DNA of 41,537 nt from Phycisphaeraceae bacterium (GCA_041674345.1 JBAYVY010000001.1:1-41537); one strand, 5' to 3'. Positions 635 to 37,595 are shown, numbered from the stretch's first letter. Program-made: numbers and translations. Notes: generated by a model not told the origin, from the sequence alone.

Positions 635-720
635 GCGGCTTGCGGGCAAAACGCAAGCCGCATCCCGCACATCGCATCCCGCAAGCCGCAGGACGCAAGA
701 CGCATCCCGCATCATCCCGC
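635..720. repeat. oligomer-built hairpin element (GCATCCCGCA type)
   Basis: Perfect 10-bp stem GCGGCTTGCG/CGCAAGCCGC (635-661), followed by three GCATCCCGCA units. Related to 14783-14857. Confidence 0.7.
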
Positions 721-2607
721 CTGTTTGCTGTCTTTCATCGCCGTTTTCGCCAAATCCTGCACCACCCGCACGGCCCGCCGCCTCACTTTCGAGTCGCCGT
801 CTTTCCGGGCCAGCAGCGCCACCTGTTCGACCAGTGGGATCAGGTTCATCCGCTCCACCACCCACAGCGCGCTGATGCGGTGCCGTTCATCCGTATCGGC
901 CAGCATCCGCAGCAGCGCCGGCACCGCCTCGTTCATCGGCAGCCCCATCAGCGCCTTGATCGCGTTGGCGCGGCTGCGGTTGCCCCGGCCGGCCGCCAAA
1001 TCCATCAGCGTCTCCCGCACCTGCCCCACGCGCTGCATCGACTCCAGCGATTCGATCGCGTTCGCCCGAACCCGGTCGTCCTGATGCGTCAGCGCCCCGC
1101 TGATCGCCGCGACCGCGCGGGGCGAATCATGCAGCATCGACATCGCGCGAAGCGCCGCCGACGCCACCCGCGCGTCTCCGTCCGCCGCCATCGTCAATAA
1201 TTGCTGCTCGAAATACGTCTCCTGCCCCAACTGCCGGATGATCTGCACCGCCTGCAAGCGGTTTTCCGCCGATTCGTCCACCATGCGATGCGACATCTTG
1301 GCCAGAAATTGGGCATCCAGTTTCATCAACGCCCGTCCGGCCGCCTGCCGCGTCGCGTGGGTCATGTTCGGCCAGTTCGCCCAATACTTTTCAAAACCCA
1401 CCGGCCCGATATGTTGCTCGGCCAGCGCCCGCACGGCCTGGTGGTCCGATCCGATCAATCGAATCATCAACTCGCCCAAACCCGGCCATCGCGTCCGCAA
1501 CAGGTGCCGCAGCGCCAGCCGGGCGATGGCTGGTTCGCTGTCGAAACACATGGACGCGATCACATCATCGGCGCGCATCTGTTCGATTTCCGATTGTCGC
1601 ATCAGCACGCGCAGCGCCATCAGCCGCGTCAGCCGGTCGTGTCCCGCGGCCAAATCCGCCAGGGCCGTGACCCGGCGATTCGGCAGGTTCATCGGTGCCG
1701 GCAGCGCGTCGATCCATTGCGCCAACTGCCGCTGCGTCGCCACGTCCATATCGGCCAGCGACGCGCGATTGGGGAACAGGTGATCCGTCCGCCGAACCTT
1801 GCGGATCGTCGTCCGCACCGCCGGGTCGATTAGCAGCGGCCCGCCCCGCAACACGAACGGCAATTGGCGTCCGACATCCGGCTGAGTCAGCGCGCGAATC
1901 ACGAACGGCTGCATCGGTTCCATCGTCGCCAGCCCCAGCAGCGCCCGGCAGGTGATCGGGTGATCCGCCTGCGCCACCAATTCCCCCAGCGGATTGAACG
2001 CCGGCAATTTGTGATCCGTCACATACCGATACAAACCCGCCGGAAAATGCGGCGCGAAACACAGCAGCGCCATCAGCACGTCCCGCCGGCGGTGCTGGTG
2101 GAAACACGCGCACGCCTCCGCCAGCGCGCTCACCAGATGATGTTGCGCCGCCAGCGTGACGGGCGTCAGCCCCGCCGGTCCGTTGCTGGCCACCAGGTGA
2201 TGCCGCGACAATCGCAACAGCGCCATCGCCGCCGCCTTGTTCAACCGGCTGTCCGATTCATGCAACTGCCTGCTCAAAAGCCACGCCAGTCGTGTCGCCG
2301 TCGTGCGGTGAATGATGTCGATCACGTTCAGTCGCGCCTGCACATCGTCCGATTCGGCCGCGTGACGCATCGCCTCGTCCAGGTGCGTCATCTGATCCAG
2401 CACCAGTTGCTGCGCCTCGGCCGGCAGCTTGTCGAATCGCCGGATCACCCCCACATAGCCCGGCACCTTGCCCCGCGCAAGCAACAACCGCGTCACCTGA
2501 GCGGCCGTCACCTTGTCCGCGTGTTCCAACGACTCAGCCATCGCCACGTCCACACTGACGTGATCGATCCCGGCAAGCAGCGCCAGATGGGCCGGATAAT
2601 CCGACAT
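712..2607 (-). CDS. HEAT-repeat protein
   Basis: 631-aa ORF of helical repeats (e.g. DERHRISALWVVERM, DSKVRRRAVRVVQDL) typical of HEAT/PBS-lyase-like repeats. The overlapping opposite-strand ORFs are R/P/H-rich shadows. Confidence 0.7.
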   Translation of the reverse strand: MSDYPAHLALLAGIDHVSVDVAMAESLEHADKVTAAQVTRLLLARGKVPGYVGVIRRFDKLPAEAQQLVLDQMTHLDEAMRHAAESDDVQARLNVIDIIHRTTATRLAWLLSRQLHESDSRLNKAAAMALLRLSRHHLVASNGPAGLTPVTLAAQHHLVSALAEACACFHQHRRRDVLMALLCFAPHFPAGLYRYVTDHKLPAFNPLGELVAQADHPITCRALLGLATMEPMQPFVIRALTQPDVGRQLPFVLRGGPLLIDPAVRTTIRKVRRTDHLFPNRASLADMDVATQRQLAQWIDALPAPMNLPNRRVTALADLAAGHDRLTRLMALRVLMRQSEIEQMRADDVIASMCFDSEPAIARLALRHLLRTRWPGLGELMIRLIGSDHQAVRALAEQHIGPVGFEKYWANWPNMTHATRQAAGRALMKLDAQFLAKMSHRMVDESAENRLQAVQIIRQLGQETYFEQQLLTMAADGDARVASAALRAMSMLHDSPRAVAAISGALTHQDDRVRANAIESLESMQRVGQVRETLMDLAAGRGNRSRANAIKALMGLPMNEAVPALLRMLADTDERHRISALWVVERMNLIPLVEQVALLARKDGDSKVRRRAVRVVQDLAKTAMKDSKQAG

Positions 2608-2750
2608 GCGGGTTCATCCATGAAACAACATTCTTCGGCTGCACGATCCGGCGTGGCCGACATCCGTGCCGGCCGGCTGCGAATCAGCCGGGACTTCCAA
2701 CTATGGTTATCGGCCAACCCCCGCCCGCCGCTTCAATCCCGACAAGCGGC

Positions 2751-2836
2751 AGAAGGAGACAGGAGACAGGGGACATTATATTCGGCGCGCCGGGGGGGTC
2801 TTACTCCTGACTCCTTACTCCCGACTCCCGACTCCC
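2751..2836. repeat. oligomer-built hairpin element (GGAGACA / ACTCC type)
   Basis: Left arm GAAGGAGACAGGAGACAGGGGAC is imperfectly complementary to right arm GTCTTACTCCTGACTCCTTACTCCCGACTCCCGACTCCC. Confidence 0.6.
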
Positions 2837-2970: not shown

Positions 2971-3306
2971 ATGTTCATCATCGGCCTGCTCCGCAAACTC
3001 CAACGCCAGGTCACCGCGTTTTTTCCCGTCGCTTCCAGTCGCACCGGCGAATGCCGGCGCTGCGGCGAATGTTGCAAACTGCCGTATCCCTGTCCGATGC
3101 TGCGATACGATGGGCAGGGCAGGAGCCGGTGTGCCGTTTACCTGTTCCGCCCCCTGAGTTGCCGGGTGTACCCCCGCACCCGCGGCGAACACCTGACCAG
3201 CGCCACCTGTGGCTTCCGCTTCCCCGGCGACCAACCCCAACCCGTCCCCGTCACGCTGTCGGTATCCGCGGAGGCGGAAACGATGGAAAACGATGCGACC
3301 GCGTGA
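2971..3306 (+). CDS. YkgJ-family cysteine-cluster protein (CxxCxxCC zinc/iron-chelating domain)
   Basis: In-frame ATG at 2971 within track ORF 1864..3306. Motifs CRRCGECCK and C-AVYLFRPLSCRVYP match the YkgJ/UPF0153 pattern. Confidence 0.75.
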   Translation: MFIIGLLRKLQRQVTAFFPVASSRTGECRRCGECCKLPYPCPMLRYDGQGRSRCAVYLFRPLSCRVYPRTRGEHLTSATCGFRFPGDQPQPVPVTLSVSAEAETMENDATA

Positions 3307-3430
3307 GGGGCCGGAGGCCGGGGAGCCGCGGGTTTTCACCGCGCGGCTATACGGATCAAACTCATCATCGCGGCTTTGAGGGACGTGACCAACTTTCGGG
3401 CGCGATCAACCGAGAGGGTAAGTTCTCACC

Positions 3431-3835
3431 TTATTGTTTTTCCGCTTTTATTGCCTTGGCGCTTCCAAAACCACCAAGAAAACCGAGCAAACCAACAATA
3501 ATTTTTTCGGTCAAGGCGATCTCGTGAAGAAACAAACCACAAATTGCCACAGAGATTATCAAACCCGCCAGCAACGTAGCACAATAGATAATTCGCCGTT
3601 GTGTCTTCGCTACAATTTCCGTTTGCTTGGTGGTTTCTTGAGCAGTCGTTGTCACCATATCTTTGACAAAAGGCAAAAGCGATTGAGCAAGAGCCCGGAG
3701 CGCATGTAGTTCTTGCTCTTCCTGTGTTGGTTGTTTTTGTTTATCCGTTTGGGCAATACTTAGCTCAGATGGTGATCCCGTTTCGCTTAATTGGGAATCA
3801 TGGCTTGAAATCGAATCCACTTCTTGTTGTCCCAT
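3431..3835 (-). CDS. hypothetical small membrane protein (two C-terminal TM helices) on an AT-rich insertion
   Basis: 134-aa ORF with an AAGGA-like RBS upstream. Polar Q/E/T-rich N-terminal half, then IIYCATLLAGLIISVAICGLFL and IIVGLLGFLGGFG. Composition is clearly AT-richer than the flanks. Confidence 0.55.
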   Translation of the reverse strand: MGQQEVDSISSHDSQLSETGSPSELSIAQTDKQKQPTQEEQELHALRALAQSLLPFVKDMVTTTAQETTKQTEIVAKTQRRIIYCATLLAGLIISVAICGLFLHEIALTEKIIVGLLGFLGGFGSAKAIKAEKQ

Positions 3836-3851
3836 TTTCTACATCCTTATT

Positions 3852-3926
3852 TCACCTTGACTCCGGCATAAGTGCCATGCGAATCGCTTCAAGAATGCTC
3901 TCCAGATACAACCGATCCGTACTCAC
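3852..3926 (-). pseudogene. hepT: truncated HepT (DUF86) toxin remnant, N-terminal 24 codons only
   Basis: GTG overlaps the mntA stop (GTGA). The translation VSTDRLYLESILEAIRMALMPESR* matches the conserved HepT N-terminus (D-x-LYL-x-DILEAI). It stops at the junction with the AT-rich segment. Confidence 0.6.
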
Positions 3927-4217
3927 AGTGAGACGCCCTCCTCCAGAACTTGTTGGCGGATGGCCGGGTGGATCGCCTCATCGGACACCACATCGACGGG
4001 GACGCCGAACAGGTCTTGCAATTCGTTTTGCAACGCCACCTGGTCGATCAGGGAACGGTTGTCGTCGAAATGCACCAGCAGGTCGATGTCGCTGGCGACC
4101 GAAGCCCGGCCTTTCGCCACGGAGCCGAACACGCGGACGCGGCGGGCGCCATGACGCTCGGCGATCCGCGGAATCGTCCGGCGACTTTTTTTTCAGATGG
4201 TCCAACGTGATGGCCAT
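3923..4217 (-). pseudogene. mntA: MntA-type nucleotidyltransferase antitoxin, frameshifted at an A8 run
   Basis: The downstream frame reads ...RIAERHGARRVRVFGSVAKGRASVASDIDLLVHFD (minimal nucleotidyltransferase GS-x10-DxD). The N-terminus MAITLDHLKKK is in another frame. Removing one base from the T8 run at 4186-4193 gives an intact protein of about 97 aa. Confidence 0.7.
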
Positions 4218-4301
4218 TCCTTAATCATGCCACATGAAACGAGGAGATAGTGACTGCGGCGAGGACGCTGCAATCGAGAGGGGAACCGGATGTACGGATT
4301 T

Positions 4302-4405
4302 CACAAAGCCGCGACCGGTGGTCGCGGTCCCGGAAGTTGAGTAATCGTTGGAGAAGTGAGCGCGCTATGTGTTCCAAGACCGCGACCAGCGGTCGCGGCT
4401 TTGTG
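4302..4405. repeat. REPIN-like doublet of two 26-nt GC hairpins in inverted orientation
   Basis: CACAAAG-CCGCGACC-GGT-GGTCGCGG (4302-4327) and CCGCGACC-AGC-GGTCGCGG-CTTTGTG (4380-4405). The second is the reverse complement of the first except for the loop. Confidence 0.75.
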
Positions 4406-4414
4406 AACAAATCG

Positions 4415-5684: not shown

Positions 5685-5799
5685 AATGTGCGATGTTCAA
5701 TGTGCGATGTTTGAAGAATCCCGGCCAAGCCGCCCCCGGAAGCAAGATGGCATGGCCGGGCTTGGATACATCGCACATGGCACATTGAACATCGCACAT
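5685..5799. repeat. hairpin element, ATGTGCG/ATGTTCA family, copy 1
   Basis: Arms AATGTGCGATGTTCAATGTGCGATGT and ACATCGCACATGGCACATTGAACATCGCACAT, with inner stem CCCGGCC/GGCCGGG. Confidence 0.85.
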
Positions 5800-6222: not shown

Positions 6223-6352
6223 GAGAATGACGAAATCCGAATGACGAATGAATATCCAAATTCCAATGTTCAAACCGCGGACGTAATCGGAAGTTTGGAA
6301 TTTTGAATTTGAAATTTCATTCGTCATTCGGATTTCGTCATTCGTCATTTCC
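6223..6352. repeat. hairpin element, AATGACG family, copy 1
   Basis: 27-bp perfect arms AATGACGAAATCCGAATGACGAATGAA / TTCATTCGTCATTCGGATTTCGTCATT. Confidence 0.9.
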
Positions 6353-7725: not shown

Positions 7726-9228
7726 ATGTCAATGCTCACGAACATTCTCTTGGTCATATGCGTTCTCCTGGCGGTTCTTCTGGTTGTCATGGTTTGGAAG
7801 TTACTGCAACGCCGATCCGACACATCGACGGGAGTTGACCTCGCGCCCAGATTCGACGAACTGGCAAAAGGGCTGGACCGTTCGGAAAAAACTTTGAAAG
7901 ATGAACTTTCGCGGAACCGTGAAGAAGCCGCAACCTCTTCACGCCAACTCCGGGAAGAGGTCAGCAAATCCATCGGCGGCTTGGTCGAAAGTGTGCTCGC
8001 TCAAATCCGGGCCTTCGGGGAGTTCCAAACCAAGCAATTGGAAATATTTGCGAACCAATTGAAAGAGACCGGGCAATTGACGGCGGAAAAACTCGATTCC
8101 GCCCGTACCGCCAATGCTGAACAACTAAAGAACTTCGGCGAAACACTTAATGGATTCCAGAAACAACAGCATGATGCTCTGGCCGCCCATATCAAGAATC
8201 TGACCGATGCCAACGAAAAGCGTTTGGAATCGCTGCGAGTGACGCTCGACCAAAGACTTCAGCAGATACAGGAAGATAACTCCAAGAAACTCGAAGCAAT
8301 GCGGGCCACCGTGGATGAAAAGTTGCAGGGAACCCTTGAAAAGCGATTGGGGGAAAGCTTCAAACTGGTCAGCGAGCGGCTTGAACTGGTGCATAAGGGA
8401 CTCGGCGAAATGCAATCGCTCGCCAACGGCGTCGGCGATCTGAAACGTGTGCTGACCAACGTCAAGACGCGGGGGAATTGGGGAGAAATCCAACTCGGTA
8501 CCTTGTTGGAGCAAATGCTGACGCCCGATCAATATGAGCAAAACGTGGCGACAGGTGACACATCCGAAAGAGTCGAATACGCGATCAAGCTGCCTGGAAA
8601 ACACGAACATCCCGGCGATTTCGTGTGGCTTCCCATTGATGCCAAGTTTCCGACGGAAAGCTACCAGCGATTGGTGGAAGCACAGGAAGCCGCCGATGTC
8701 GTTGCGACGGCGCTGGCCATGAAAGAACTGGAAGCGAGGGTCAAGGGGTGCGCCAAGGATATCTGCACCAAATACATCAACCCGCCCAAGACCACTGATT
8801 TCGGCATTATGTTTCTTCCAACGGAAGGTCTGTATGCGGAAGTTATTCGCCGCGCCGGACTGGTTGAATCCATTCAGCGGGAATACCGCATCGTGATAGC
8901 CGGTCCAACAACTCTAGCGGCTTTGTTAAACTCGCTGCAAATGGGGTTCCGAACACTCGCCATCGAAAAACGCAGCAGCGAAGTATGGGAATTACTTGGC
9001 GGAGTAAAAACTGAATTCGGAAAATTTGGAGATGTCATCGGAAACATCCAAAAGAAACTTTTGTCTGCATCCAATGAATTCGATCAAGTCGCAGTACGAA
9101 CACGTGCGATCAATCGCAAGCTGCGGGGCGTGCAACAACTGAATGACAATGAATCCTTGCAAATTCTTGGGGAAACCGACGGCATCGCAAGTGCGGAGGA
9201 TACGGATTCTGACGCCGGGGGCAATTAA
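7726..9228 (+). CDS. rmuC: DNA recombination protein RmuC
   Basis: 500 aa. N-terminal TM helix, long coiled-coil, then the conserved RmuC core (RGNWGEIQLGTLLEQ..., FVWLPIDAKFP, FGIMFLPTEGLY). Confidence 0.88.
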   Translation: MSMLTNILLVICVLLAVLLVVMVWKLLQRRSDTSTGVDLAPRFDELAKGLDRSEKTLKDELSRNREEAATSSRQLREEVSKSIGGLVESVLAQIRAFGEFQTKQLEIFANQLKETGQLTAEKLDSARTANAEQLKNFGETLNGFQKQQHDALAAHIKNLTDANEKRLESLRVTLDQRLQQIQEDNSKKLEAMRATVDEKLQGTLEKRLGESFKLVSERLELVHKGLGEMQSLANGVGDLKRVLTNVKTRGNWGEIQLGTLLEQMLTPDQYEQNVATGDTSERVEYAIKLPGKHEHPGDFVWLPIDAKFPTESYQRLVEAQEAADVVATALAMKELEARVKGCAKDICTKYINPPKTTDFGIMFLPTEGLYAEVIRRAGLVESIQREYRIVIAGPTTLAALLNSLQMGFRTLAIEKRSSEVWELLGGVKTEFGKFGDVIGNIQKKLLSASNEFDQVAVRTRAINRKLRGVQQLNDNESLQILGETDGIASAEDTDSDAGGN

Positions 9229-9239
9229 TTGCCCCCGCC
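9214..9239. repeat. 26-nt palindrome, copy A (GCCGGGGGCAATTAATTGCCCCCGCC)
   Basis: Perfect 20-nt core GGGGGCAATTAATTGCCCCC. Its central TTAA provides TAA stops for rmuC (+) and the phosphodiesterase gene (-). Confidence 0.95.
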
Positions 9240-10205: not shown

Positions 10206-11132
10206 GTGCGAAATGTTAGAATCTGGTTGAAACGCCTGTGGAGTATCGCATTGAAACTGCAATGTCCGGCCAAATTGAATCTCGCCCTGTCCACCGGCTC
10301 GCCGCGGCGGGGGCAATTAATTGCCCCCGCCCCCGCCCCCGGAAGCGCCGGATTTCACCCCATCGCGTCGTGGATGGTGACGGTGAATCTGTTCGACGAC
10401 CTGACGGTGGAACCAAGCGAGGGTGACAGCACGTTCGACATCGCGTGGGCGGACGATGCGCCGCAGCCGTCGCCGATCGACTGGCCGGTCGAGGAGGACT
10501 TGATCTTCCGGGGGCATCAGTTGATCGAGCGTCATGTCGGGCGGAAGTTGCCGGTGCGTGTGACGCTGCGCAAGCGCATCCCGGTGGGGGCGGGCATGGC
10601 GGGCGGATCGACGGACGGCGCGGGCATGTTGAAGGCGGTGAACGAGGTTTTCAATCTGCGATTGCCGCGACAAACGCTGATTGATTTCGCCATGCAACTG
10701 GGCAGCGATTTGGCGTTCTTTTTTACTTCCGGGGGCGCGTTGGTGACGGGGCGTGGTGAGGGATTGGAGCCGGTGCCGGCGAGGGCGATGGATTGGGTGT
10801 TGGTGTTGCCGCCGCTGCACTGCCCGACGGGAGCGGTGTATCGGAAGTTTGATGAGTTGTCGCCCTATGCGAAAGTGAACGAGCAAGCCGTGCGTGAGGT
10901 GATCGCGGGCCGGCGTGAGCCGTTCAACGATTTGGGAGCGGCGGCGCTGGCGGTGGAACCGCAACTGGCGGCGTTGCGTGATGAACTGCAAAAGAAATTG
11001 GGGCGCACCTTGCACATCACCGGCAGCGGCGCGGCGATGTTCATTGTGGCGCGCGATAGCAAGGATGCGACGCGGTTGGCCGCACAAATCACGGAAGTGC
11101 CGGTGCGTGTGGCGAGGGCGGGGGATTGCTAA
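10206..11132 (+). CDS. ispE: 4-diphosphocytidyl-2-C-methyl-D-erythritol kinase
   Basis: N-terminal PAKLNLAL, GHMP-kinase motif IPVGAGMAGGSTDGA, DLAFFF. GTG start at 10206 is uncertain. Carries an in-frame palindrome insertion. Confidence 0.85.
   Translation: MRNVRIWLKRLWSIALKLQCPAKLNLALSTGSPRRGQLIAPAPAPGSAGFHPIASWMVTVNLFDDLTVEPSEGDSTFDIAWADDAPQPSPIDWPVEEDLIFRGHQLIERHVGRKLPVRVTLRKRIPVGAGMAGGSTDGAGMLKAVNEVFNLRLPRQTLIDFAMQLGSDLAFFFTSGGALVTGRGEGLEPVPARAMDWVLVLPPLHCPTGAVYRKFDELSPYAKVNEQAVREVIAGRREPFNDLGAAALAVEPQLAALRDELQKKLGRTLHITGSGAAMFIVARDSKDATRLAAQITEVPVRVARAGDC
10306..10331. repeat. 26-nt palindrome, copy B (GGCGGGGGCAATTAATTGCCCCCGCC)
   Basis: Perfect palindrome inside ispE, read as RRGQLIAPA. 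Confidence 0.95.
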
Positions 11133-12160: not shown

Positions 12161-12222
12161 GGGGATATGGTATGCGGAGAAATGCCCCATCACCAATTTC
12201 CAATGACGAAAACTTCGCAGTC

Positions 12223-12265
12223 CACCACGGCCTGCCGCCGAAGGCGGCGCCATTCCGTGCTTGAG
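12223..12265 (-). promoter_or_regulatory. conserved leader stem-loop motif, copy 3 (upstream of cysE)
   Basis: The minus strand reads CAAGCACGGAATGGCGCCGCCTTCGGCGGCAGGCCGTGG. Outer stem CACGG/CCGTG, inner stem GCCGCC/GGCGGC. About 63 nt upstream of the cysE ATG. Confidence 0.55.
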
Positions 12266-12300
12266 ACCGGAGATGGGTCATTACCCGGATGGCCAAGCGA

Positions 12301-12473
12301 ATCGCGGGCGAGCCAGGCGGAGTTTGCTCGAACCCCAGTAACAGGTGGGTGCGTCAAGTCCTGTCCGGGCCTTCCACTCGTAGGTGGCTTGACCGTCGCA
12401 GGTCTTTGGACGCTCCCTGGGGGTCCTTATCGGTTCGAGCAATAAATGTCCGCGACTGGCTCGAACCCGCGAT
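12301..12473. ncRNA. candidate structured RNA or MITE-like element (unclassified)
   Basis: 31 bp of nested long-range pairing: 12301-12308/12466-12473, 12310-12316/12456-12462, 12317-12321/12449-12453, 12324-12334/12432-12442. An alternative 9-bp helix is 12432-12440/12459-12467. Strand undetermined. Confidence 0.35.
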
Positions 12474-12635
12474 CGTTCAGCAACCGACGGTTACTGCACC
12501 CACATTATACCTCATGGGAAAAGCGAAGCGTGAAAAATCCGTTTGTTCATGAAAATGTTTGTCGTCCCCGACCCGCCGGTTGACACGCGGCGTAACCGGC
12601 AGATAATGAAAAGAACACTTGAAAGGCAGGCCCCC

Positions 12636-12895: not shown

Positions 12896-12988
12896 GCAAG
12901 ACAACAGAACAGCAAGACAACAGAACAGCAGAACATGCGCGAACAATGCCATGTTCTGCTGTTTTTCTTTTCTGATGTTCTGCTTTGC
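12896..12988. repeat. oligomer-built hairpin element (CAGAACA type)
   Basis: ACAGCAGAACATG / CATGTTCTGCTGT 13-bp core stem, flanked by (CAAGACAACAGAACAG)x2 and T-rich imperfect partners. Confidence 0.7.
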
Positions 12989-13014: not shown

Positions 13015-13800
13015 ATGATAGACGCATCACCCAGCACCCTCCGCATCGCGGCTTACAACATCCTCGAAGGCGGGATGGGCCGGCTTGATCCGATCGCCCA
13101 GACGCTGGGGACGTTGCAAGCCGATCTGATCGCGTTGATCGAGGCGAACGATCCGCGGGCCGTGGCATACCTGGCGGAATGCACGGGGATGCACCACGCG
13201 CTGGCCGAGTCGCCGACCGGGCGGTTTCACGTGGCGCTGCTGTCGCGGCATCCGATTCGTCAGATGCTGAATCTGGGCGTGAAACACCGCTCGCTCAGCC
13301 GGGCGGCGATGCTGGCGAATATCGAAGTACGCGGCCGGCCTCTTCGCATGGGCGTGTTCCATCTTCAATCGGGGCTGGGGCGGGAATGCGAGGATCAGCG
13401 GCTGAAGGAATTGGAGTGGTTGCTGCGCGACCTGGGCGACGGGGCGACGCCGACGGTGCTGGCCGGTGATTTCAACACCAACGCGCCGTGGCATCCGATT
13501 GACGTGGAGCGGGCCGAGCCGTCGGTGAGACGCCGATTGCGTGCCGACCCGGCGCTGGTGTGTCACGATGTGGTGGAACAGTTGACCGCGGCGGGCTGGG
13601 CCGAGGCGTATCACCGCGCGCACCCCGATCAGCCGGTGCATACCTTTTCGACGGGCTTTCCCTCGACGCGGCTGGACTACATTTTCGCCGATCACACGCT
13701 GGCCGACCGCGTCACCGGCGCGGGCGTGGAGACCCGCGGTTTCGCCCCCTATTGCTCGGACCATTTCCCGCTTTATGCGGACCTGAAATGGGAGGAATAA
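13015..13800 (+). CDS. endonuclease/exonuclease/phosphatase (EEP) family protein
   Basis: LRIAAYNILEGG, DLIALIEAN, LAGDFN and SDHFPLYADL are EEP catalytic motifs. Start set to the ATG at 13015. Confidence 0.8.
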   Translation: MIDASPSTLRIAAYNILEGGMGRLDPIAQTLGTLQADLIALIEANDPRAVAYLAECTGMHHALAESPTGRFHVALLSRHPIRQMLNLGVKHRSLSRAAMLANIEVRGRPLRMGVFHLQSGLGRECEDQRLKELEWLLRDLGDGATPTVLAGDFNTNAPWHPIDVERAEPSVRRRLRADPALVCHDVVEQLTAAGWAEAYHRAHPDQPVHTFSTGFPSTRLDYIFADHTLADRVTGAGVETRGFAPYCSDHFPLYADLKWEE

Positions 13801-13900
13801 TGTGCGATGTTCAATGTTCAATGTGCGATGGTGCAGAGGCGAATCCGGAATCGCACCGCTCCGCATCACATCGCACATCGCACATTGAACATCGCACATT
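13798..13900. repeat. hairpin element, ATGTGCG/ATGTTCA family, copy 2
   Basis: Arms AATGTGCGATGTTCAATGTTCAATGTGCGATG and CATCGCACATCGCACATTGAACATCGCACATT. The left arm includes the TAA stop of the EEP gene. Confidence 0.85.
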
Positions 13901-13943: not shown

Positions 13944-14783
13944 ATGACCATGACCATCGACAGTTTGCCCGCGGACTGGCTTTCGCTGGTCGCCGATACG
14001 GAGCGGCGAAACGGCACGGTCGAACTCTGCCCCGACCCCGATCACTACGACACCCACTTCTGCCAGGTCAACATCCACAAAGTGCGACTGCTCTACCTTC
14101 AGGACCGACGCTGGATCATCGAGCGGCCGTTCTCCCTCAAGGGCCAGCCCGCCATCACGCGCGACATGCACCTGCTGGGCATTCTCGGTTCCGGCGCGCA
14201 CCGCTGGAGCTTCCGCACCACCGTCGAGGCGGTCGTGCGATTCAAACTCAACGACACGCAGACCGTGGCGGCCCTGCGGCTGTCCGCCCCGACCGATGTG
14301 CAGTCCGCGCAACGCCGGGCGTTTTTCCGGGTCCATCTGCTGGCGGCGAACATCCCCGATGTCACGTGCTGGCCGCTGCTGGATTTGTCCAGCGCGATCG
14401 AATCCGAAAAGGCCGACGAACATCTGCATCGTGAAGGCGAACTTCCCTCGCCCCGTCCGCTCCCGCCGACCACCGATCAGCCGTTCACCGCGCCGCTCAA
14501 TGACCTCAGCGGCAACGGCGTGTCGATCCTCGTCGATGATGAACACCTCAAAAAACTCGAGCAAAATCCGCTGCTCTGGCTGAAACTTGATCTGCCCGAT
14601 CTGTCGCATCCGCTGATGGTGGTCGCCCGCTACGTGCGGCAGCAGCCCGACGCCGTGGGTCGCCGCGTGGTCGGGCTAACCTTCCAGTTCCGCCACAATC
14701 GCAGCCACGAATCATTCATCAACGATCAAATCTGCCGCTGGGCCGCCGCCGAGCAACGCCGACAACTCCATCGCCCCCGCTGA
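13944..14783 (+). CDS. PilZ-domain (YcgR-like) c-di-GMP binding protein
   Basis: In-frame ATG at 13944. QRRAFFRV ... DLSGNGVSI matches the PilZ RxxxR / D-x-S-x-x-G motifs. The N-terminal domain is of YcgR-like size. Confidence 0.7.
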   Translation: MTMTIDSLPADWLSLVADTERRNGTVELCPDPDHYDTHFCQVNIHKVRLLYLQDRRWIIERPFSLKGQPAITRDMHLLGILGSGAHRWSFRTTVEAVVRFKLNDTQTVAALRLSAPTDVQSAQRRAFFRVHLLAANIPDVTCWPLLDLSSAIESEKADEHLHREGELPSPRPLPPTTDQPFTAPLNDLSGNGVSILVDDEHLKKLEQNPLLWLKLDLPDLSHPLMVVARYVRQQPDAVGRRVVGLTFQFRHNRSHESFINDQICRWAAAEQRRQLHRPR

Positions 14784-14857
14784 TGCGCATTGCGGTATGC
14801 GTCCTGCGTCCTGCGTTGGGAACGATTTCCCGCAAACCGCATCCCGCATCCCGCGAT
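14783..14857. repeat. oligomer-built hairpin element (GCATCCCGCA type), copy 2
   Basis: TGCGGTATGCGTCCTGCGTCCTGCGTTGGGAA ... TTCCCGCAAACCGCATCCCGCATCCCGCGA, between convergent genes. Confidence 0.65.
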
Positions 14858-19728: not shown

Positions 19729-19866
19729 GGAAATGACGAATGACGAAACTCGAATGACGAATGAAATCCCAAATTTCAAACACCAATCCGATGAACGCAC
19801 CGGATTCTTGAAACATTGGAATTTGGAACTTGATTCGTCATTCGGACTTCGTCATTCGTCATTCGA
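19729..19866. repeat. hairpin element, AATGACG family, copy 2
   Basis: GGAAATGACGAATGACGAAACTCGAATGACGAATGAAATCCCAAATTTCAAA ... TTGGAATTTGGAACTTGATTCGTCATTCGGACTTCGTCATTCGTCATTCG. Confidence 0.9.
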
Positions 19867-19967: not shown

Positions 19968-20036
19968 GCCACGGATTAACACGGATAGGATTTTTTGAAA
20001 CAAGGCCATCCGCGTTTATCTGTGTTTATCTGTGGC
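19968..20036. repeat. oligomer-built hairpin element (CACGGATA / TATCTGTG type)
   Basis: GCCACGGATTAACACGGATAGG pairs imperfectly (several G-T positions) with CCATCCGCGTTTATCTGTGTTTATCTGTGGC. Confidence 0.55.
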
Positions 20037-20049
20037 TCAATCCTCCCGG

Positions 20050-20086
20050 AAAAAGAACCCCGGTTCCGTGAGGAGGGCGGGGTTCT
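20050..20086 (-). terminator. intrinsic terminator downstream of pntB
   Basis: The minus strand reads AGAACCCCG-(15 nt loop)-CGGGGTTCT followed by TTTT. Confidence 0.6.
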
Positions 20087-23313: not shown

Positions 23314-23486
23314 GGGTACACCTCGTACAAGGTCGCGGTTTTCACAATGTCTTCCATCGCTTCCAATCCAGACCTGATGGACAGCGAAGTCGCAGATAAT
23401 ACAGATGAATGTATCCGAAATCAAGGGCGAGCGGAGAATGGGGTTTTGTCCTGATCGCACCCACCGAATCGCCGGAAAGCGGATGT

Positions 23487-23546
23487 CGAAACCCGAAACT
23501 CAAAACAGCCCGGCAATCTTCCTTTCAAGTTTCGGGTTCGGGTTTG
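23487..23546. repeat. oligomer-built hairpin element (CGAAACC type)
   Basis: CGAAACCCGAAACT ... AGTTTCGGGTTCGGGTTTG. Confidence 0.6.
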
Positions 23547-23601: not shown

Positions 23602-26085
23602 TCATTTCCCCTCATCGCCCGTCGCCTTTCGCTTCTCGTCGTCTTCCAGCACGGCGCGGGTCGCCGCCGCGAAGGCGTTGATCGTCATGTCTCCGCTGCG
23701 AAGGCCGGCGTTCAATATCGGATCATCGACCTTATGCACCTGCGTGGCCAGCATCGTCAACTGCACCAGCGGGTGAGGGGTCTGCGCCGCGGCGGACAGC
23801 ACGTCGGCCAGTGGTTTGACCACCGTGTCATTCGGCGGGATCAGCGACACGAGGTATGCCTGTTGCACCGGCGAATAACCGGGGAACGCGGCAACCAACG
23901 CCCGCGTGATGTCGTCATCGGGGCGGGGGAAATTCATTTCCCCCGCCGGCTCGGACAGCACGGCGACGAGCATGGCCATCGCACGCATCGCCGCGGCCGG
24001 ATCGGAACTGCCCAGTTCGATGATTTTCTGTTGGACGGCCTGCTGGGTGATCGGCACATTGCGGCGGACCAGATCGCGCAGGAACGCGGTGGAGCCGAGC
24101 ATCCCCGGCGCGAACGCCCCGCCGGAGGCGACGGTCGGATTGAGGATCGCCAGTTCGCCGATCTGCACCCTGGCCCACGGCGAATCGGTCAGCAGCATGC
24201 CCAGGTCCGCGCTGTCCAATCGCACGGGGATCGACAGCGACCGCAACGGCTCGATCCGCAACCGGCGGGACACATCCATCACCATCGGCGACAACGGAGA
24301 CGCCGGCCGCAAATTCACCGACACCGACGGCGAAAGGAACAGCCGCGTCGGTATCGAACCGTCCGGCCCCATCGACAACGGATAAGTGTTGACATTGCGA
24401 AGTTCCAGCACGGCGGTGATTGGCTGACCGAAGTCGTACCGCATCATCGGACAGACCCATCGCACCTGCACGAAGCTCATCGGATCGGCGGCCATCTGTC
24501 GCAGCGCGGGGGGCACGGCGGCGAACACGGCGGCCACCTGCCGCGCCTCGGCCGGAGCGGGCAGGGGCAGGGACATGCGGCGAAGCTGCGCCGCGGCGGT
24601 CATGCCGAATATGTCCGTCGGCGATTGAAGCACGACCTGACGCAGATGTTGGATCGCCCGATCCTTCGCATCGGACTGCGCCAGTTCGGCCATCGCCAGA
24701 CCGAGCGCCGCGCGCGGATCGGCGTCCGCCAGGGGCGTGAGCAGTTGCGTGGCGATGTCGAGTTGGCCGGTGCGCATCGCCAGCCAGCCGCGCATCAGCG
24801 GCAGTTGAAGGTTCGCCGCATCGGGCTGCGTCGCCAGTTTGTCGAGCAGCGCGGCGGTCTGATCGGTGTTCTGATCGCAGAGGAGCTGCGCCCAGACCTG
24901 TGCGACGGCGGGGGCAATGAATTGCCCCCGCCCCAGTTCGGCGTTCAATCGGTCGTCCAGCCGCTTGAACGCGACGGACAGATCGGCGGAGGTTCCGTTG
25001 TTGGCCAGGATCGCCGCCCGCAGCATCAACGAGTCAAGCGGAGGCCAGTCCGGGTTCGCGGGAGGGGGTGCCTTGTCGGACTTCGCTTCCGGGGGCGGGG
25101 GCGATGAATCGCCCCCGCCTTTGGGGGCGGGGACCGGGGGCGGGTCGAGTTGTGCCAGCAGCGATATCGCATCGCTTCCGCGACCGGCCCCCCACAACGC
25201 CAGCGCCCATTCGTGCAGCAGCGAGATCGAGCCGGTGCGACGGTTGGCGGTGTCGATCCGCGCCGCGCCGGCGAACCAATCGGCGGCATCGTTGTATTGC
25301 GCCATCGACATGAGCATCTGCCCGATGGCCGCATGAGCGCGACCGTCGGCCGGGTCGGCCTGGAAGAGCGTCAACATCGCCGCGGCCCGCTCCTGGGCCG
25401 TGCTTTTTTCACTGGCGCTGAGTACCCGCAACGATTCGGCGGCCGCCTGTTTGTTCGTCGAATCCAACTGAAGCGCCATCGTCAGCAGGCGACCGTATTC
25501 GCCGGGCTGCCCCAGTTCGGCCGCGAGAATCGCCGCCCGCAGCGCCACGCGACTGCGCAGCGGAGCGCTGAAATGTTCGGCCGCCGGTCCTTCGGTGATT
25601 TTCAACAGGTACGCCAGTCGCAGATCGGCGGTCTGCATTTTTGCCGTGAGCAGGTCGATCAGCCGCAGTTGTGCCGCGTCGTCGGCCGGCGCCAGCCGCA
25701 TGTATTGTTTGAGCGCGTCGATCTGCGCGTCGCGGTCGTCGCAAAGCGACTGCGCCTCGGCGGTCAGCAGCCATCGCTCGGCGTCCGTGCCGTCCAAAGC
25801 GTTGGCCTGTTCGAGCAACAGGCGCGCCTGCGTGATGCGGGCCGGTTGGGGCTGGGCCTGGTCCGCAGACACCAGCGCCCGCCGCGCCAGCATCGTCAGC
25901 CGGTGCGCCAACATCCGCGACGCGGTGGGATACGACGCGGCGTCCGGCGGGGTTCCTGGAGCATCCGGGGTTCCGGGGGCATCCGGAGGGACGGCCTGTG
26001 CCGGCGCGATGCCCGTCGCCATCGCGATCAGCAGCAGCATTATGAACGCGGTCGATCGATTGGTTTTCACTGACAGACCCTTCAC
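23602..26085 (-). CDS. large secreted TPR-like/helical-repeat protein, function unknown
   Basis: 827 aa. GTG start at 26085 (alternative ATG at 26040) gives signal peptide ...LLLIAMATGIAPAQA. Alanine/leucine-rich helical repeats. Contains two palindrome copies in frame. Confidence 0.6.
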   Translation of the reverse strand: MKGLSVKTNRSTAFIMLLLIAMATGIAPAQAVPPDAPGTPDAPGTPPDAASYPTASRMLAHRLTMLARRALVSADQAQPQPARITQARLLLEQANALDGTDAERWLLTAEAQSLCDDRDAQIDALKQYMRLAPADDAAQLRLIDLLTAKMQTADLRLAYLLKITEGPAAEHFSAPLRSRVALRAAILAAELGQPGEYGRLLTMALQLDSTNKQAAAESLRVLSASEKSTAQERAAAMLTLFQADPADGRAHAAIGQMLMSMAQYNDAADWFAGAARIDTANRRTGSISLLHEWALALWGAGRGSDAISLLAQLDPPPVPAPKGGGDSSPPPPEAKSDKAPPPANPDWPPLDSLMLRAAILANNGTSADLSVAFKRLDDRLNAELGRGQFIAPAVAQVWAQLLCDQNTDQTAALLDKLATQPDAANLQLPLMRGWLAMRTGQLDIATQLLTPLADADPRAALGLAMAELAQSDAKDRAIQHLRQVVLQSPTDIFGMTAAAQLRRMSLPLPAPAEARQVAAVFAAVPPALRQMAADPMSFVQVRWVCPMMRYDFGQPITAVLELRNVNTYPLSMGPDGSIPTRLFLSPSVSVNLRPASPLSPMVMDVSRRLRIEPLRSLSIPVRLDSADLGMLLTDSPWARVQIGELAILNPTVASGGAFAPGMLGSTAFLRDLVRRNVPITQQAVQQKIIELGSSDPAAAMRAMAMLVAVLSEPAGEMNFPRPDDDITRALVAAFPGYSPVQQAYLVSLIPPNDTVVKPLADVLSAAAQTPHPLVQLTMLATQVHKVDDPILNAGLRSGDMTINAFAAATRAVLEDDEKRKATGDEGK
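24907..24932. repeat. 26-nt palindrome, copy C (GGCGGGGGCAATGAATTGCCCCCGCC)
   Basis: One central substitution relative to copy B. In frame in the TPR-like gene as GRGQFIAPA. Confidence 0.9.
25094..25119. repeat. 26-nt palindrome, copy D (GGCGGGGGCGATGAATCGCCCCCGCC)
   Basis: Same GC clamps, with centre CGATGAATCG. In frame in the TPR-like gene as KGGGDSSPPP. Confidence 0.8.
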
Positions 26086-26274: not shown

Positions 26275-26889
26275 ATGATGGAGTCAGCACCCGTGGCCAA
26301 AAAGAAGACCACCCCCCAACGCAAAACCACCCGTCGCGCCCCGGCGCCGGCCTCGAAATCCAAGACGCCCGCCCCCCCAAAGCCGGTCGCCAAGGGCACC
26401 AAGGTCGCCAGGAAACCGACCCCCAAGCCCGCCCCCAAGGCCAAGCCCCCGGTCGTCAGCGACAAACCCGTCAAGATCGGCAAGACCAAAATGTCCAAGC
26501 AGGAGTTGCTCCACTATCGCACGCTGCTGTTGGTCAAACGTGCCGAACTGGTCGGCGATATCGACGGCATGGCCGATTCCGCCCTCCGCGGAAAAGATAC
26601 GTCCAATCTCTCCACCATGCCCCTCCATATGGCCGACGTCGGCTCCGACAACTATGACCAGGACCTCATGCTCGGCCTGATGGAATCCGAACGCAAACTC
26701 CTCCGCGAAATCGACGAGGCCCTGAATCGCATCGCCGACGGAACGTTCGGCATCTGCCAGGCCACCGGCAAACCCATCAACAAAGCCCGCCTCGAAGCCA
26801 AGCCCTGGGCCAAATACTGCATCGAAGCCGCCCGCGAATTCGAACGCAACGGCAACGGCAACGGTAATGGCAATGGCAATGGACGGTGA
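26275..26889 (+). CDS. DksA/TraR-family regulator, DksA2-type (CxxT-x17-CxxA) with K/P-rich N-terminal tail
   Basis: Coiled-coil plus C-terminal GICQATGKPINKARLEAKPWAKYCIEAA, where only 2 of the 4 zinc-finger cysteines remain. Histone-H1-like KP-rich N-terminus. (NG)6 tail. Confidence 0.75.
   Translation: MMESAPVAKKKTTPQRKTTRRAPAPASKSKTPAPPKPVAKGTKVARKPTPKPAPKAKPPVVSDKPVKIGKTKMSKQELLHYRTLLLVKRAELVGDIDGMADSALRGKDTSNLSTMPLHMADVGSDNYDQDLMLGLMESERKLLREIDEALNRIADGTFGICQATGKPINKARLEAKPWAKYCIEAAREFERNGNGNGNGNGNGR
26848..26883 (+). repeat. (AAY GGN)6 microsatellite encoding (NG)6 at the DksA-family C-terminus
   Basis: AACGGCAACGGCAACGGTAATGGCAATGGCAATGGA. Confidence 0.9.
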
Positions 26890-26905: not shown

Positions 26906-27025
26906 TAATGACGAATGTCGAATGACGAAGGAATGACGAAGGAATGACGAAGGAATGACGAATGTCGAATGACGAATGTCCAAACGCGGAGTTCTCATTG
27001 TTTCGTCATTCGTCATTCGTCATTC
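26906..27025. repeat. hairpin element, AATGACG family, copy 4 (asymmetric, with 11-mer tandem)
   Basis: The long left arm includes GAATGACGAAG repeated about 4x (26920-26963). Short right arm TTTCGTCATTCGTCATTCGTCATTC. Confidence 0.85.
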
Positions 27026-27072: not shown

Positions 27073-27651
27073 ATGCCTCAATCCCCCCCCACCCCCGACT
27101 CCCCCGACTCACCCGGCTCCCCGCCCCTCTACCGCTTTCCCCGGCGCATCATTTTGCTCCTCGCCCTCGCCGCCGCTCTCCTCGCCGGCGACCTGTTCCT
27201 TAAACAGTGGGCCTTCGCCAACGTCCGCGATATCCGCACCGTCATTCCCAACGTCCTTGATCTCCGTCTGACCCTGAACCGGGGAGCCGTGTTCGGCATC
27301 GGACAGGGCTACGTCTTCGTCTTCGTCATCATCACCTTCATCGCCGTCGCCCTCATCGGCTACGCCCTGCTCGCCAGTCGCCGCCGGCAATCGGTCTTCC
27401 AACTCGCCCTCATGCTCGTCCTCGCCGGCGCGCTGGGCAATCTCCACGACCGCATCATGCTCCATGAGCATGCCGTCCGCGACATGCTCCTCATCTTCCC
27501 CAACTCCCACCTCCCGTTCGGCTGGCACTGGCCCGGCGGACGCACCGAACTCTACCCCTGGATTTTCAACCTCGCCGACGTCTATCTCAACATCGGCATC
27601 GGAACGCTGATCGTCAGATCACTGTTCTTCGCCGGAAGACAGAGGGATTAG
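27073..27651 (+). CDS. lspA: lipoprotein signal peptidase II
   Basis: LTLNRGAVFGIG, GALGNLHDRI and FNLADVYLNIG are LspA signatures. Confidence 0.85.
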   Translation: MPQSPPTPDSPDSPGSPPLYRFPRRIILLLALAAALLAGDLFLKQWAFANVRDIRTVIPNVLDLRLTLNRGAVFGIGQGYVFVFVIITFIAVALIGYALLASRRRQSVFQLALMLVLAGALGNLHDRIMLHEHAVRDMLLIFPNSHLPFGWHWPGGRTELYPWIFNLADVYLNIGIGTLIVRSLFFAGRQRD

Positions 27652-27748
27652 GGCGAGGGGCGAGGGACTGGGGACGAGGGATCGGCGCATCTTCTTCTTC
27701 CCCAGCCCCCAGCCCCCAGCCCCTACAGCCCCTAATCCCTAACCCCTC
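27643..27748. repeat. oligomer-built hairpin element (GGGGAC/GGGCGA vs CCCCAG type)
   Basis: The left arm GAGGGATTAGGGCGAGGGGCGAGGGACTGGGGACGAGGG contains the lspA TAG stop. Right arm CCCCAGCCCCCAGCCCCCAGCCCCTACAGCCCCTAATCCCTAACCCCTC. Confidence 0.7.
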
Positions 27749-37202: not shown

Positions 37203-37464
37203 GGGGGCGTATCACCGCGTCAAAAAAATCGCTGCGGCGCCTTGGTACGGGGGTGGGGGTGGGGCGCGGGCCGGCGGCGTGGAAGGTTCCCTGATCGGCC
37301 CTGTTCCCACGTCGGCTTGCCATGCGATAAGCATATCCCGTGCCTGACAATGGGCTGTCAGTAAAGGAGTTAGAATGAGATGTCAATGGGTTTTTCTTGC
37401 GAATGGGAAAATGTGCTTATGGGGCTTCCCGTAAGCAAGAGGGAGGGGGGAAGGGAGGGAAGGG

Positions 37465-37595
37465 GAAACTCGAAATCCGAAACTCGAAGCTCGAATCAAA
37501 CTCGAAGTCCGAAACTCGAAACAAGAGGCGGCCTTCTTTTTCGATTTTCGAGTTTCGGACTTGATTCGAGCTTCGATCTTCGAGCTTCGAGTTTC
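37465..37595. repeat. oligomer-built hairpin element (CTCGAAA/CTCGAAG type), about 50-bp stem
   Basis: GAAACTCGAAATCCGAAACTCGAAGCTCGAATCAAACTCGAAGTCCGAAACTCGAAA ... TTTCGAGTTTCGGACTTGATTCGAGCTTCGATCTTCGAGCTTCGAGTTTC. Lies between the kinase stop and the cytochrome operon. Confidence 0.85.

Follow-up and report, generated by a model that had tools for sequence, protein, structure and literature searches.

Introduction

Since 1990 it has been recognised that heptanucleotide repeats abound in some bacteria, and since 2007 that they are the most over-represented class of longer repeats. The subject of the present study is a 41,537-nt stretch of DNA from a Phycisphaeraceae bacterium (GCA_041674345.1 JBAYVY010000001.1:1-41537; the whole stretch is called the window below), in which many of the spacers between genes carry a hairpin whose arms are tandem arrays of short units, mostly 7 nt long.

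In most bacterial genomes, as summarised in PMC4679880 and PMC4692102, heptanucleotides outnumber any other class of longer simple repeat, and slippage of the polymerase is their proposed source. In two genomes, those of Xanthomonas campestris and X. axonopodis, Rehm et al. 2015 reported 183-186 arrays of the GGGAATC type with 70-75 convergent inverted pairs, and 89-93% of the arrays were intergenic (PMC4692102). They lie on average 28 nt from the upstream open reading frame (ORF), mostly in co-directional and rarely in divergent spacers, and vary strongly in length and sequence between close species, and no function was found for them (PMC4692102). Three heptanucleotides in Calothrix PCC 7601 are cited in PMC4692102. 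The TAACTGA heptamers of marine Beggiatoaceae, cyanobacteria and Bacteroidetes occur almost exclusively as direct arrays, with one inverted case (PMC4679880). The 23S rRNA of Coxiella contains an intervening sequence (IVS) whose terminal inverted repeats form a stem, which RNase III cleaves; ahead of its ORF for a four-helix-bundle protein of the S23p type there are GACAGAT heptamers, three or four of them depending on the strain (PMC4990558). REP units, finally, are imperfect palindromes of 20-40 bp with a GTAG or CGTC tag (PMC3733652).

An earlier inspection of the window, here called the sequence-only reading, did not recognise the hairpins as a described class of repeat. The kind is already described though poorly understood, as both the heptanucleotides of cyanobacteria and the inverted GGGAATC arrays of Xanthomonas had been reported (PMC4692102). 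On balance we consider it likely, with clear reservations, that the elements are copies of small palindromic repeats whose arms are inverted arrays of 7-nt units, of the same kind as the heptanucleotide repeats of cyanobacteria and Xanthomonas.

Detection and significance of the hairpins

The window corresponds to bases 19-41555 of the ENA metagenome contig ERZ27247358:k141_1643295 (45,891 bp). The gene set, built from called genes and Pfam matches, comprises 35 genes, and the spacers that reach 40 nt or more number 25. All 14 hairpins listed by the sequence-only reading were recovered at their coordinates independently by an inverted-repeat scan, by Tandem Repeats Finder and by RNAfold. They were the top matches of the inverted-repeat scan, which was unbiased and gave arms of 23-65 nt with 70-96% complementarity, and all of them fold as long hairpins with predicted free energies (dG) of -18 to -71 kcal/mol. 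When each element was compared with 100 dinucleotide shuffles of itself, 10 of the 14 were strongly non-random (z -3.7 to -10.7) and the other four were weak as hairpins. The elements occupy 13 of the 25 spacers, that is, about half and not most of them as had been thought; there are 14 elements in 13 spacers because those at 19729 and 19968 share one.

The arms had been described as runs of 6-11-mers. Tandem units are indeed what they consist of, but the period is overwhelmingly 7, which had been missed: it was by far the commonest period in Tandem Repeats Finder (25 of 83 rows). Across all spacers, intergenic self-match was 0.341 at a lag of 7 and 0.310 at a lag of 14, with other lags at about 0.27, and coding DNA had period 3 only. 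The exceptions are the elements at 12896 (unit of 8+8 nt) and 19968 (10 nt). Period-7 arrays numbered 6.0 per 10 kb in the window vs 0.6 in a control set made of 1.12 Mb of loci from other phyla, and 17 of the 25 arrays in the window have an inverted partner at most 250 nt away. Arrays with such a partner amounted to 17 in the 41.5 kb of the window compared with 15 in the 1.12 Mb of controls, an excess of about thirty-fold.

In Rfam the elements had only sub-threshold matches to models of miRNA precursors, that is, to generic long hairpins; one element searched with BLAST against plasmids had no match, probably because of low-complexity masking; and a literature search by the literal repeat sequences returned nothing relevant.

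The 14 elements are as follows (percentages give the complementarity of the arms; dG in kcal/mol).

635..720: arms of about 10-12 bp at 635-661, then a direct array of CGCAnnn heptamers at 652-716; z -2.3; fills the spacer of two minus-strand genes and provides the TGA stop of gene 712-2607
2751..2836: three AGGAGAC opposite five ACTCCCG, only 6 of 7 bases complementary per unit, a weak hairpin; divergent spacer; z -0.6
5685..5799: ATGTGCG/ATGTTCA family with a GC-rich centre; arms 46 nt, 80%; dG -64.9; z -8.3; starts 5 nt past the nuoA stop, with the start of a deoC-like gene 12 nt beyond
6223..6352: AATGACG family in the divergent nuoA/tyrS spacer; arms 51 nt, 86%; dG -63.5; z -10.7
12896..12988: both arms repeat a 16-nt (8+8) unit, GCAAGACAACAGAACA; in the centre there is a terminator-like stem, and the U-rich 3' arm (TGTTTTTCTTTTCTG) comes directly after it; dG -38.9; z -5.2; begins 2 nt past the upstream stop
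13798..13900: second copy of the ATGTGCG/ATGTTCA family; arms 32 nt, 94%; dG -56.9; z -8.5; its opening TAA is the stop codon of the EEP gene
14783..14857: TGCGTCC (2.7 copies) opposite TCCCGCA (3.9 copies), moderately complementary, with units akin to the CGCATCC units of 635-720; convergent spacer; z -2.1
19729..19866: AATGACG family; arms 48 nt, 85%; dG -62.0; z -9.6; 3' of the pnt operon, past its canonical terminator
19968..20036: 10-nt units, CACGGATTAA / GTTTATCTGT; dG -29.3; z -5.2; directly follows the canonical pntB terminator; L206, a relative, has a related array upstream of pntAA
22012..22163: AATGACG family within the pnt operon; arms 65 nt, 75%; dG -71.3; z -8.7; 1 nt past the pntAA stop, with the pntAB start 33 nt on
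23487..23546: short hairpin of CGAAACC/CGAAACT units (CGAA-core family); dG -17.6; z -2.0; upstream of the pntAA promoter
26906..27025: AATGACG family with unequal arms, the 5' side being an expanded 11-nt variant (GAATGACGAAG, 4.9 copies) and the 3' arm a perfect TTCGTCA array (3.4 copies); dG -50.2; z -5.3
27643..27748: G-rich GGGNNNN heptamers opposite CCCCAGC heptamers (Xanthomonas type); dG -57.9; z -3.7; encodes the last three codons of lspA and its TAG stop
37465..37595: GAAACTC family; arms 65 nt, 77%; dG -67.8; z -7.0; contains the irregular 11-mer GAATCAAACTC, found also in the pnt-spacer element of the relative L206

Families and anatomy of the arms

The elements form dispersed families in which the order of unit variants along the arms is conserved and the centres are unrelated and richer in GC. 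The earlier impression that every locus has a unit of its own has thus to be replaced by that of a few families, at least five in the window, dispersed over unrelated loci and each with a common unit order. For the six arms of the elements at 6223, 19729 and 22012 there is a common consensus (about 55 nt), AATGACGAATGACGAAATCCGAATGACGAATGAA..TCCAAATTCCAATGTTCAAA, which reads AATGACG AATGACG AAATCCG AATGACG AATGAAn nTCCAAA TTCCAAT GTTCAAA, while the centres of these elements are unrelated to one another. The element at 26906 is a variant of the same family in which an 11-nt unit has been expanded on one side. The terminus AATGTGCGATGTTCAATGT is common to 5685 and 13798, CGCATCC-type units are common to 635 and 14783, and CGAAACT-type units occur in both 37465 and 23487; the irregular unit GAATCAAACTC is common to 37465 and to the pnt-spacer element of L206, although these loci are not orthologous. 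Many units consist of a fixed 4-nt core and three variable bases (CGAAnnn, CGCAnnn, GGGnnnn).

Going from the outer unit to the inner in 20 hairpins of the window and of metagenomes, identity to AATGACG was 1.0, 1.0, 0.79, 0.66, 0.40 and 0.29, where the first two units are 1.0 by the selection criterion. In these hairpins the GC fraction was 0.41 in the AATGACG arms vs 0.58 in the centres, with 0.61 for the genome. The unit AAACTCG is present already within AATGACG arms, and the orientation of AATGACG is fixed (86 arrays vs 2), a trait of this family.

Some candidate generalities were discarded. Three AATGACG units give TGA in every frame, but stops in all three frames are not a general rule, as by inspection the ATGTGCG, CGCATCC, GAAACTC and GGAGACA arms are without stop codons. 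Nor was any weight given to the idea that a purine-rich 5' arm marks a general polarity, since other units are only 4/7 purine, with exceptions. The motif ATGCGGTTGCC near the pnt elements was not above chance.

A structural role in DNA has been proposed for the G-rich heptamers of Xanthomonas and Nostoc, and the elements could by analogy be regulators acting through non-B DNA such as a G-quadruplex or i-motif. This would suit 27643-27748, whose GGGNNNN units are of a type that formed G-quadruplexes in vitro (PMC4692102). However, G-tracts were found in this element only, and the AATGACG, ATGTGCG, GAAACTC and CAGAACA families have the same architecture without any; as most families cannot form a G-quadruplex, it cannot be the unifying property, and we regard this explanation as extremely improbable.

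Position relative to genes and terminators

Counted from the upstream stop codon, the elements start at -9 to +30 nt (median 2 nt), and the exceptions sit behind another feature; the next start codon is typically 26-47 nt or more away. All 14 lie in spacers and overlap a gene end by at most 9 nt, and three supply the stop codon itself. The overlaps with the stops of the EEP gene and lspA that had been pointed out are real, to which a HEAT gene can be added, and the pntAA stop is abutted as had been described; the spurious peptides MTNDEIRMTNE and MCDVQCAMCDV are likewise present. Elements were found in 10 of 14 co-directional, 1 of 5 convergent and 2 of 7 divergent spacers, which are small numbers.

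The stems of 30-65 bp are mostly AT-rich and have no trailing T-run. The reported lack of U-tracts thus holds in general, with the exception of 12896-12988 and its U-rich 3' arm. A canonical intrinsic terminator is located at 20050-20086(-), directly 3' of pntB (stem GAACCCCG/CGGGGTTC, then TTTTT), and is kept in the relatives L204 and L206; a simple terminator scan missed it because its loop is long. The elements are not ordinary intrinsic terminators, in agreement with the sequence-only reading, as the pntB terminator is a separate structure, one hairpin lies inside the pnt operon and two are in divergent spacers. If selection acted on the RNA strand, the sense strand should gain in G.U pairs and in stability, but there was no consistent advantage in either, and this candidate was rejected. 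The absence of a difference between sense and antisense in energy or G.U pairing indicates that the symmetry belongs to the DNA and not to one transcript.

It could still be argued that the host has selected the hairpins as RNA elements, either as bidirectional terminators poor in U-tracts or as 3' stem-loops that protect mRNA in the manner of enterobacterial REP/BIME. Their start just past stop codons, their being commonest in co-directional spacers, and the fact that most genes preceding one have no other terminator-like site would fit such a role; 12896-12988 resembles a real terminator, being A-rich in its 5' flank and U-rich in its 3' arm, and the AATGACG family has an A-rich 5' arm and a T-rich 3' arm on both strands. 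Yet the organism does use canonical terminators, and one element sits between pntAA and pntAB, which need to be co-expressed, at a place where close relatives are without it. The occurrence in two divergent and only one of five convergent spacers, the missing G.U bias of the sense strand, and the conservation of neither sequence nor presence at orthologous sites speak in the same direction, and we find a host-selected RNA function unlikely.

Turnover between close relatives

Judged by its sequence, the host is a poorly sampled Phycisphaerales-like planctomycete with a GC content of 61.5%. The closest relatives of its PntAA (94-95% identity) and TyrRS (96%) are in the Phycisphaerales metagenome-assembled genome (MAG) GCA_054605035.1 and in Logan assemblies. 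Further matches of the two proteins are at most 75% identical, the named ones including Phycisphaeraceae, Phycisphaerae and other Planctomycetota, and the best match among GTDB species representatives is 66%.

The loci L204/L205 and L206-L210 share the pnt operon with the window, and their pntAA DNA is 92-93% identical to it. A comparison of orthologous spacers, which the sequence-only reading had proposed as a check, revealed both presence/absence and an exchange of families in the spacer between pntAA and pntAB: it has 186 nt with an AATGACG hairpin in the window, 145 nt with a GAAACTC-family hairpin in L206/L207, and 51 nt without a hairpin in L204/L205. On the 3' side of the pntB terminator there are two elements in the window and other arrays in the relatives, and the tyrS-rmuC spacer has a direct array of G-rich heptamers in L211 vs a small GC hairpin in the window. 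L204 has heptamer hairpins of its own, in spacers that are not shared. Elements are therefore gained, lost or swapped for another family between genomes that are about 92% identical. A trait of the whole phylum was rejected, since no spacer in 15 kb of L212, a syntenic Phycisphaerae contig with a TyrRS identity of 73%, carries heptamer arrays. The trait is thus specific to a lineage, and the genes on either side diverge far more slowly than single elements turn over. An assembly artefact can be excluded, because like elements are carried by independent assemblies of the relatives, namely L204 (an NCBI MAG) and L206/L207 (two sequencing runs).

These comparisons bear on whether copying between loci is needed at all. 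The repeats might have arisen purely in situ, when a small pre-existing hairpin was enlarged by slippage in steps of 7 nt and intrastrand template switching kept the arms symmetrical. The strict period of 7, the unequal arms with their differing copy numbers, and the outer units that are more perfect than the inner all fit such growth, as do the bacterial excess of heptamers and the slippage proposed for it in PMC4679880 and PMC4692102 and the Xanthomonas arrays of variable length that mostly lie between the same genes (PMC4692102); the AAACTCG variant inside AATGACG arms means that one family could seed another. What in-situ growth explains poorly is that unrelated loci, also across genomes, have in common a non-trivial unit order and an irregular 11-mer, and that the whole element of the pnt spacer, its centre included, differs at about 92% identity, which is too much for gradual drift. 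An origin without any exchange between loci thus seems improbable to us. Copying between loci, which belongs to the explanation that we favour, is the simplest account of the shared irregular units at unrelated loci and of the replacement in the pnt spacer.

Some further observations were made on these relatives. L206 and L207 have an identical PntAA protein, and in their pntAA-pntAB spacer (L206 1411-1555) the arms differ by three transitions, all at CpG (TTCGAA to TTCAAA twice, and GTTCG to GTTTG), which are non-compensatory (dG -83.6 vs -70.8), a pattern suggestive of methylated cytosines being deaminated at TTCGAA. The short-read contigs L206, at both ends, and L211, at its start, terminate in or beside tandem arrays of 7-11-nt units, which suggests that short-unit repeats fragment the assemblies of the relatives. 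Upstream of pntAA there is a promoter-like TTGATT-17-TATTAT (23424-23396) with a leader, at 23314-23430 (-) of the window; about 110 nt of promoter and leader are almost identical in L204, L205, L206 and L207 and unrelated further upstream, and this region may be a regulatory 5' untranslated region.

Heptamer arms around four-helix-bundle genes

An exact-match scan for (AATGACG)x3 found at least 120 metagenome contigs with GC fractions of 0.39-0.70. Among the matches listed, a strict partner (two CGTCATT units within 200 nt) lay downstream of 39 of 130 arrays and upstream of 1. The metagenome AATGACG hairpins are built by the same rules as those of the window, with outer units that are perfect, inner CGAAnnn units that are degenerate and a centre rich in GC, and in low-GC, cyanobacterial-looking contigs with GCGATCGC motifs AATGACG is mixed with other heptamers, mostly in direct arrays. 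Inverted arrays of other units were found among the control loci, in MAGs labelled Deltaproteobacteria, Calditrichaceae and Planctomycetota.

In five AATGACG arrays among the matches listed the partner is about 510 nt away, and a 150-aa ORF lies between the arms. One such ORF (L160 6950-7408), enclosed by AATGACG and CGTCATT arms, encodes a TIGR02436 'four helix bundle protein' (E 1.5e-13) and also matches PF05635, '23S rRNA-intervening sequence protein' (35 bits, above the cut-off), and PDB 2rld. With a jackhmmer profile started from one sequence, 5 four-helix-bundle proteins were detected in the metagenome loci, and because the sensitivity of this profile is low, 5 of 130 is a lower bound. 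Homologues of the enclosed protein number in the thousands, the named ones being from Candidatus Udaeobacter and other Verrucomicrobia. A Udaeobacter contig has the order mlaE, AATGACG arm, four-helix-bundle gene, CGTCATT arm, mlaF, ORF-less AATGACG hairpin, mlaD; in the related contigs L178 and L193, whose locus is orthologous to that of L160, the arms at the mlaE-mlaF junction surround a short GC hairpin in place of the gene. A tblastn search of annotated plasmids with the enclosed protein gave 22 records, mostly Nostoc, and in five of seven inspected plasmid genes the four-helix-bundle gene was inside inverted heptamer arrays that adjoin its start and stop codons (Dolichospermum, Nostoc flagelliforme with two genes, Chlorohelix and Planktothrix). 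In 50 kb of the Nostoc plasmid, both four-helix-bundle genes are enclosed, and there are three or four further inverted pairs with related units and centres of 70-140 nt that have no such gene. Arms of this kind thus enclose elsewhere a gene of the IVS-protein family, and ORF-carrying and ORF-less forms occur at one locus, in one operon and on one replicon. The carriers of arm-enclosed four-helix-bundle genes are Verrucomicrobia, cyanobacteria and Chloroflexota. This link to the cassettes of rRNA intervening sequences was absent from the earlier picture, and a search of the available library found no paper that joins four-helix-bundle proteins with heptamer repeats beyond the Coxiella GACAGAT remark.

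As side observations, four-helix-bundle genes of annotated plasmids and a Udaeobacter contig (L213, L215, L217, L218, L220) sit between functionally linked genes, like insertions into operons; their neighbours are a helicase and methylase, DISARM drmD with an MmeI-type enzyme, cas1 directly downstream, and mlaE/mlaF. In L126 (8403-9330), seven AATGACG and three CGTCATT units form arms 858 nt apart that enclose two minus-strand ORFs, one of them with an HNH-like motif (CEYC...HH...CxxC), and the arms can therefore flank cargo besides four-helix-bundle genes.

Passenger genes between the arms also raise the possibility of transposable elements of the miniature inverted-repeat type (MITEs), mobilised by a transposase encoded elsewhere for which the tandem heptamers would be multiple binding sites in the terminal inverted repeats. 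Conserved terminal inverted repeats were indeed found (six arms at three loci), the arms of about 35-55 nt being conserved and variable in length; they are AT-rich in a GC-rich genome, and relatives are polymorphic for presence. Other hallmarks are missing: around four AATGACG copies no direct repeat that would mark a target-site duplication was seen, the copies have unrelated centres, with no conserved internal sequence from a parent insertion sequence, and the 46-kb contig has no transposase. At least five unit families would, moreover, need several transposases, or one that reads structure. Typical MITEs are in our view quite unlikely.

The arrays could alternatively be binding sites for a protein, of the cold-shock or four-helix-bundle type, that reads single-stranded nucleic acid in steps of 7 nt, the hairpin being secondary. 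The constant period with varying sequence and a 4-nt core per unit (CGAAnnn, CGCAnnn, GGGnnnn), and the tight association of four-helix-bundle genes with such arrays, would agree with this, and CspB, as cited in PMC4679880, binds direct heptamer repeats with one protein per heptamer. We nevertheless consider it very unlikely, because no motif is common to all families, units within a duplex of 30-65 bp are not single-stranded, and arrays are lost without replacement in close relatives.

Origin and significance of the elements

The growth in situ, host-selected, MITE and protein-binding explanations are not mutually exclusive with heptamer-armed palindromic repeats that are copied between loci, and of the candidates named by the sequence-only reading we favour replication slippage and non-autonomous elements jointly, with RNA processing as the most likely consequence once an element is transcribed. 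Replication slippage in steps of 7 nt at the stem base, where a one-sided gain leaves pairing intact, would lengthen the arms; this would explain why the outermost units are the most perfect and the arms often unequal. Copies would spread, or replace one another, by transposition or by ectopic template switching. The hairpins of the window would be ORF-less counterparts of the IVS-like four-helix-bundle cassettes. In read-through transcripts RNase III could cut the duplexes of 30-65 bp as it does the stems of rRNA IVSs, and so separate or insulate neighbouring cistrons; by this analogy, transcribed elements are probably cut by RNase III. Persistence would be expected just 3' of stop codons, where the next promoter or ribosome-binding site stays undisturbed. 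We infer that the elements are mainly selfish or neutral and not terminators designed by the host.

Several results weigh against this interpretation. Four of the 14 elements are poor hairpins (2751 with z -0.6, 635 with -2.3, 14783 with -2.1 and 23487 with -2.0). Neither a target-site duplication nor a defined element boundary was found in the window's elements, and mobility is therefore not demonstrated mechanistically. Most Xanthomonas arrays stay between the same genes in two species (PMC4692102), which fits evolution in situ better than frequent transposition. Two of the seven inspected four-helix-bundle genes have direct flanking arrays (Bernardetia and Pseudanabaena), and as the 46-kb contig of the window has no four-helix-bundle gene, nor a transposase, the link to IVS cassettes rests on other lineages. 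The small unannotated ORFs beside elements (214-618, 12636-12893, 2971-3306) had no family match.

A wider and more speculative proposal, which we hold to be rather unlikely, is that heptamer-arm hairpins, free-standing four-helix-bundle (S23p/PF05635) genes and rRNA IVSs are one widespread and hitherto unrecognised class of selfish cassette. The class would consist of inverted arrays with or without the gene, at sites adjacent to stop codons, at operon junctions and at the tips of rRNA helices in Planctomycetota, Verrucomicrobiota, Cyanobacteriota, Chloroflexota and Proteobacteria, and the four-helix-bundle protein would act in trans as the recogniser or propagator of the 7-nt arrays. If true, it would explain the long-noted excess of heptanucleotides in bacterial genomes.

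The present data add to the described repeats a new phylum, several mostly AT-rich families within one genome, and evidence of dispersal and replacement; the related loci add the link to four-helix-bundle/IVS cassettes, which was not found in the literature. That a GC-rich planctomycete has this architecture, and mostly with AT-rich units, argues against the G-quadruplex as the common denominator. The tie between arms and four-helix-bundle genes offers a testable hypothesis for two orphan features. In practice, elements of this kind change the ends of genes, give rise to spurious ORFs and seem to fragment short-read assemblies, and they probably bring RNase III sites into operons.

Other features of the window

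A match to 6S RNA (Rfam RF00013) at 12306-12465 (-) covers the full model with 48.1 bits, against a gathering score of 46.4, and lies in the divergent 445-nt spacer 12191-12635. A second repeat family consists of a 20-nt palindrome, GGGGGCAAT(T/G)AATTGCCCCC, with 5 sites vs 0.01 expected by chance:

9217-9236: 20-nt palindrome
10309-10328: 20-nt palindrome, kept in L211
23925-23944: 20-nt palindrome
24910-24929: 20-nt palindrome
25097-25116: 20-nt palindrome

One copy is at a convergent gene overlap and three are inside an 812-aa ORF. The latter, called as gene 23602-26040 (-), has a weak TPR match only and holds three GGGGGCAAT..ATTGCCCCC palindromes; this gene call may be unreliable in parts. 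At 4300-4407 there is an inverted repeat not made of heptamers, with 36-nt arms that are 92% complementary (z -10.5) and each contain a small palindrome (GCCGCGACC..GGTCGCGG), which resembles a REPIN dimer of two REP hairpins.

Within 3307-4132, a 69-aa gene (3923-4132(-)) matches the MntA antitoxin with 52.5 bits, below the cut-off of 60. The adjacent spacer of 616 nt has no called gene, and a 134-aa ORF in it (3431-3835(-)) matches no HepT/HEPN model, so the toxin partner of the MntA-like gene is missing or unrecognised. Upstream of the element at 26906, a 198-aa protein (26293-26889 (+)) is DksA/YteA-like below the curated cut-offs and has a C4 zinc-finger region.

Comparison with known systems

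The heptanucleotide repeats of cyanobacteria, also called STRR, share with the elements of the window the tandem 7-nt units, the presence of several types per genome and the intergenic location, and AATGACG arrays occur in cyanobacterium-like contigs and inverted pairs on the Nostoc plasmid. They are, however, described as direct arrays, and a hairpin is not part of their definition, whereas here 17 of 25 arrays are paired and the host is a GC-rich planctomycete. The TAACTGA heptamers are likewise intergenic tandem heptamers found in distant phyla and have no assigned function, but they stand just upstream of start codons, and the inverted pairs described here just 3' of stop codons.

The REP/BIME/REPIN systems (PMC3733652, PMC3116915) resemble the elements as abundant extragenic palindromes after genes that form long-hairpin dimers, turn over rapidly within genomes and can occur inside operons. 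The arms differ in being non-palindromic period-7 tandem arrays without a tag, and no RAYT gene was seen in the 46-kb contig. With the 23S rRNA IVSs of Coxiella and Leptospira (PMC4990558) the likeness is in the long stem of terminal inverted repeats, in tandem heptamers of variable copy number, which Coxiella has at the 5' side, in the existence of short forms without an ORF, and in a loop that may hold a PF05635/TIGR02436 gene, as do the AATGACG-armed elements of Verrucomicrobia. IVSs sit within helices of rRNA, and RNase III excises them; in the window there is no rRNA, and its elements lie between protein genes with no ORF in their loops.

The Xanthomonas arrays have in common with the present elements the tandem 7-nt units of a conserved core and variable positions and the convergent inverted pairs close together, and they too are nearer to the end of the upstream ORF than to the ORF that follows and are scarce in divergent spacers (2/7 here). 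They consist, however, of one G-rich unit that has been read as G-quadruplex-forming, whereas the window has at least five families, mostly AT-rich and with no G-quadruplex possible. The elements described here are also from another phylum, and in them the order of units defines dispersed families and orthologous sites change from one family to another.

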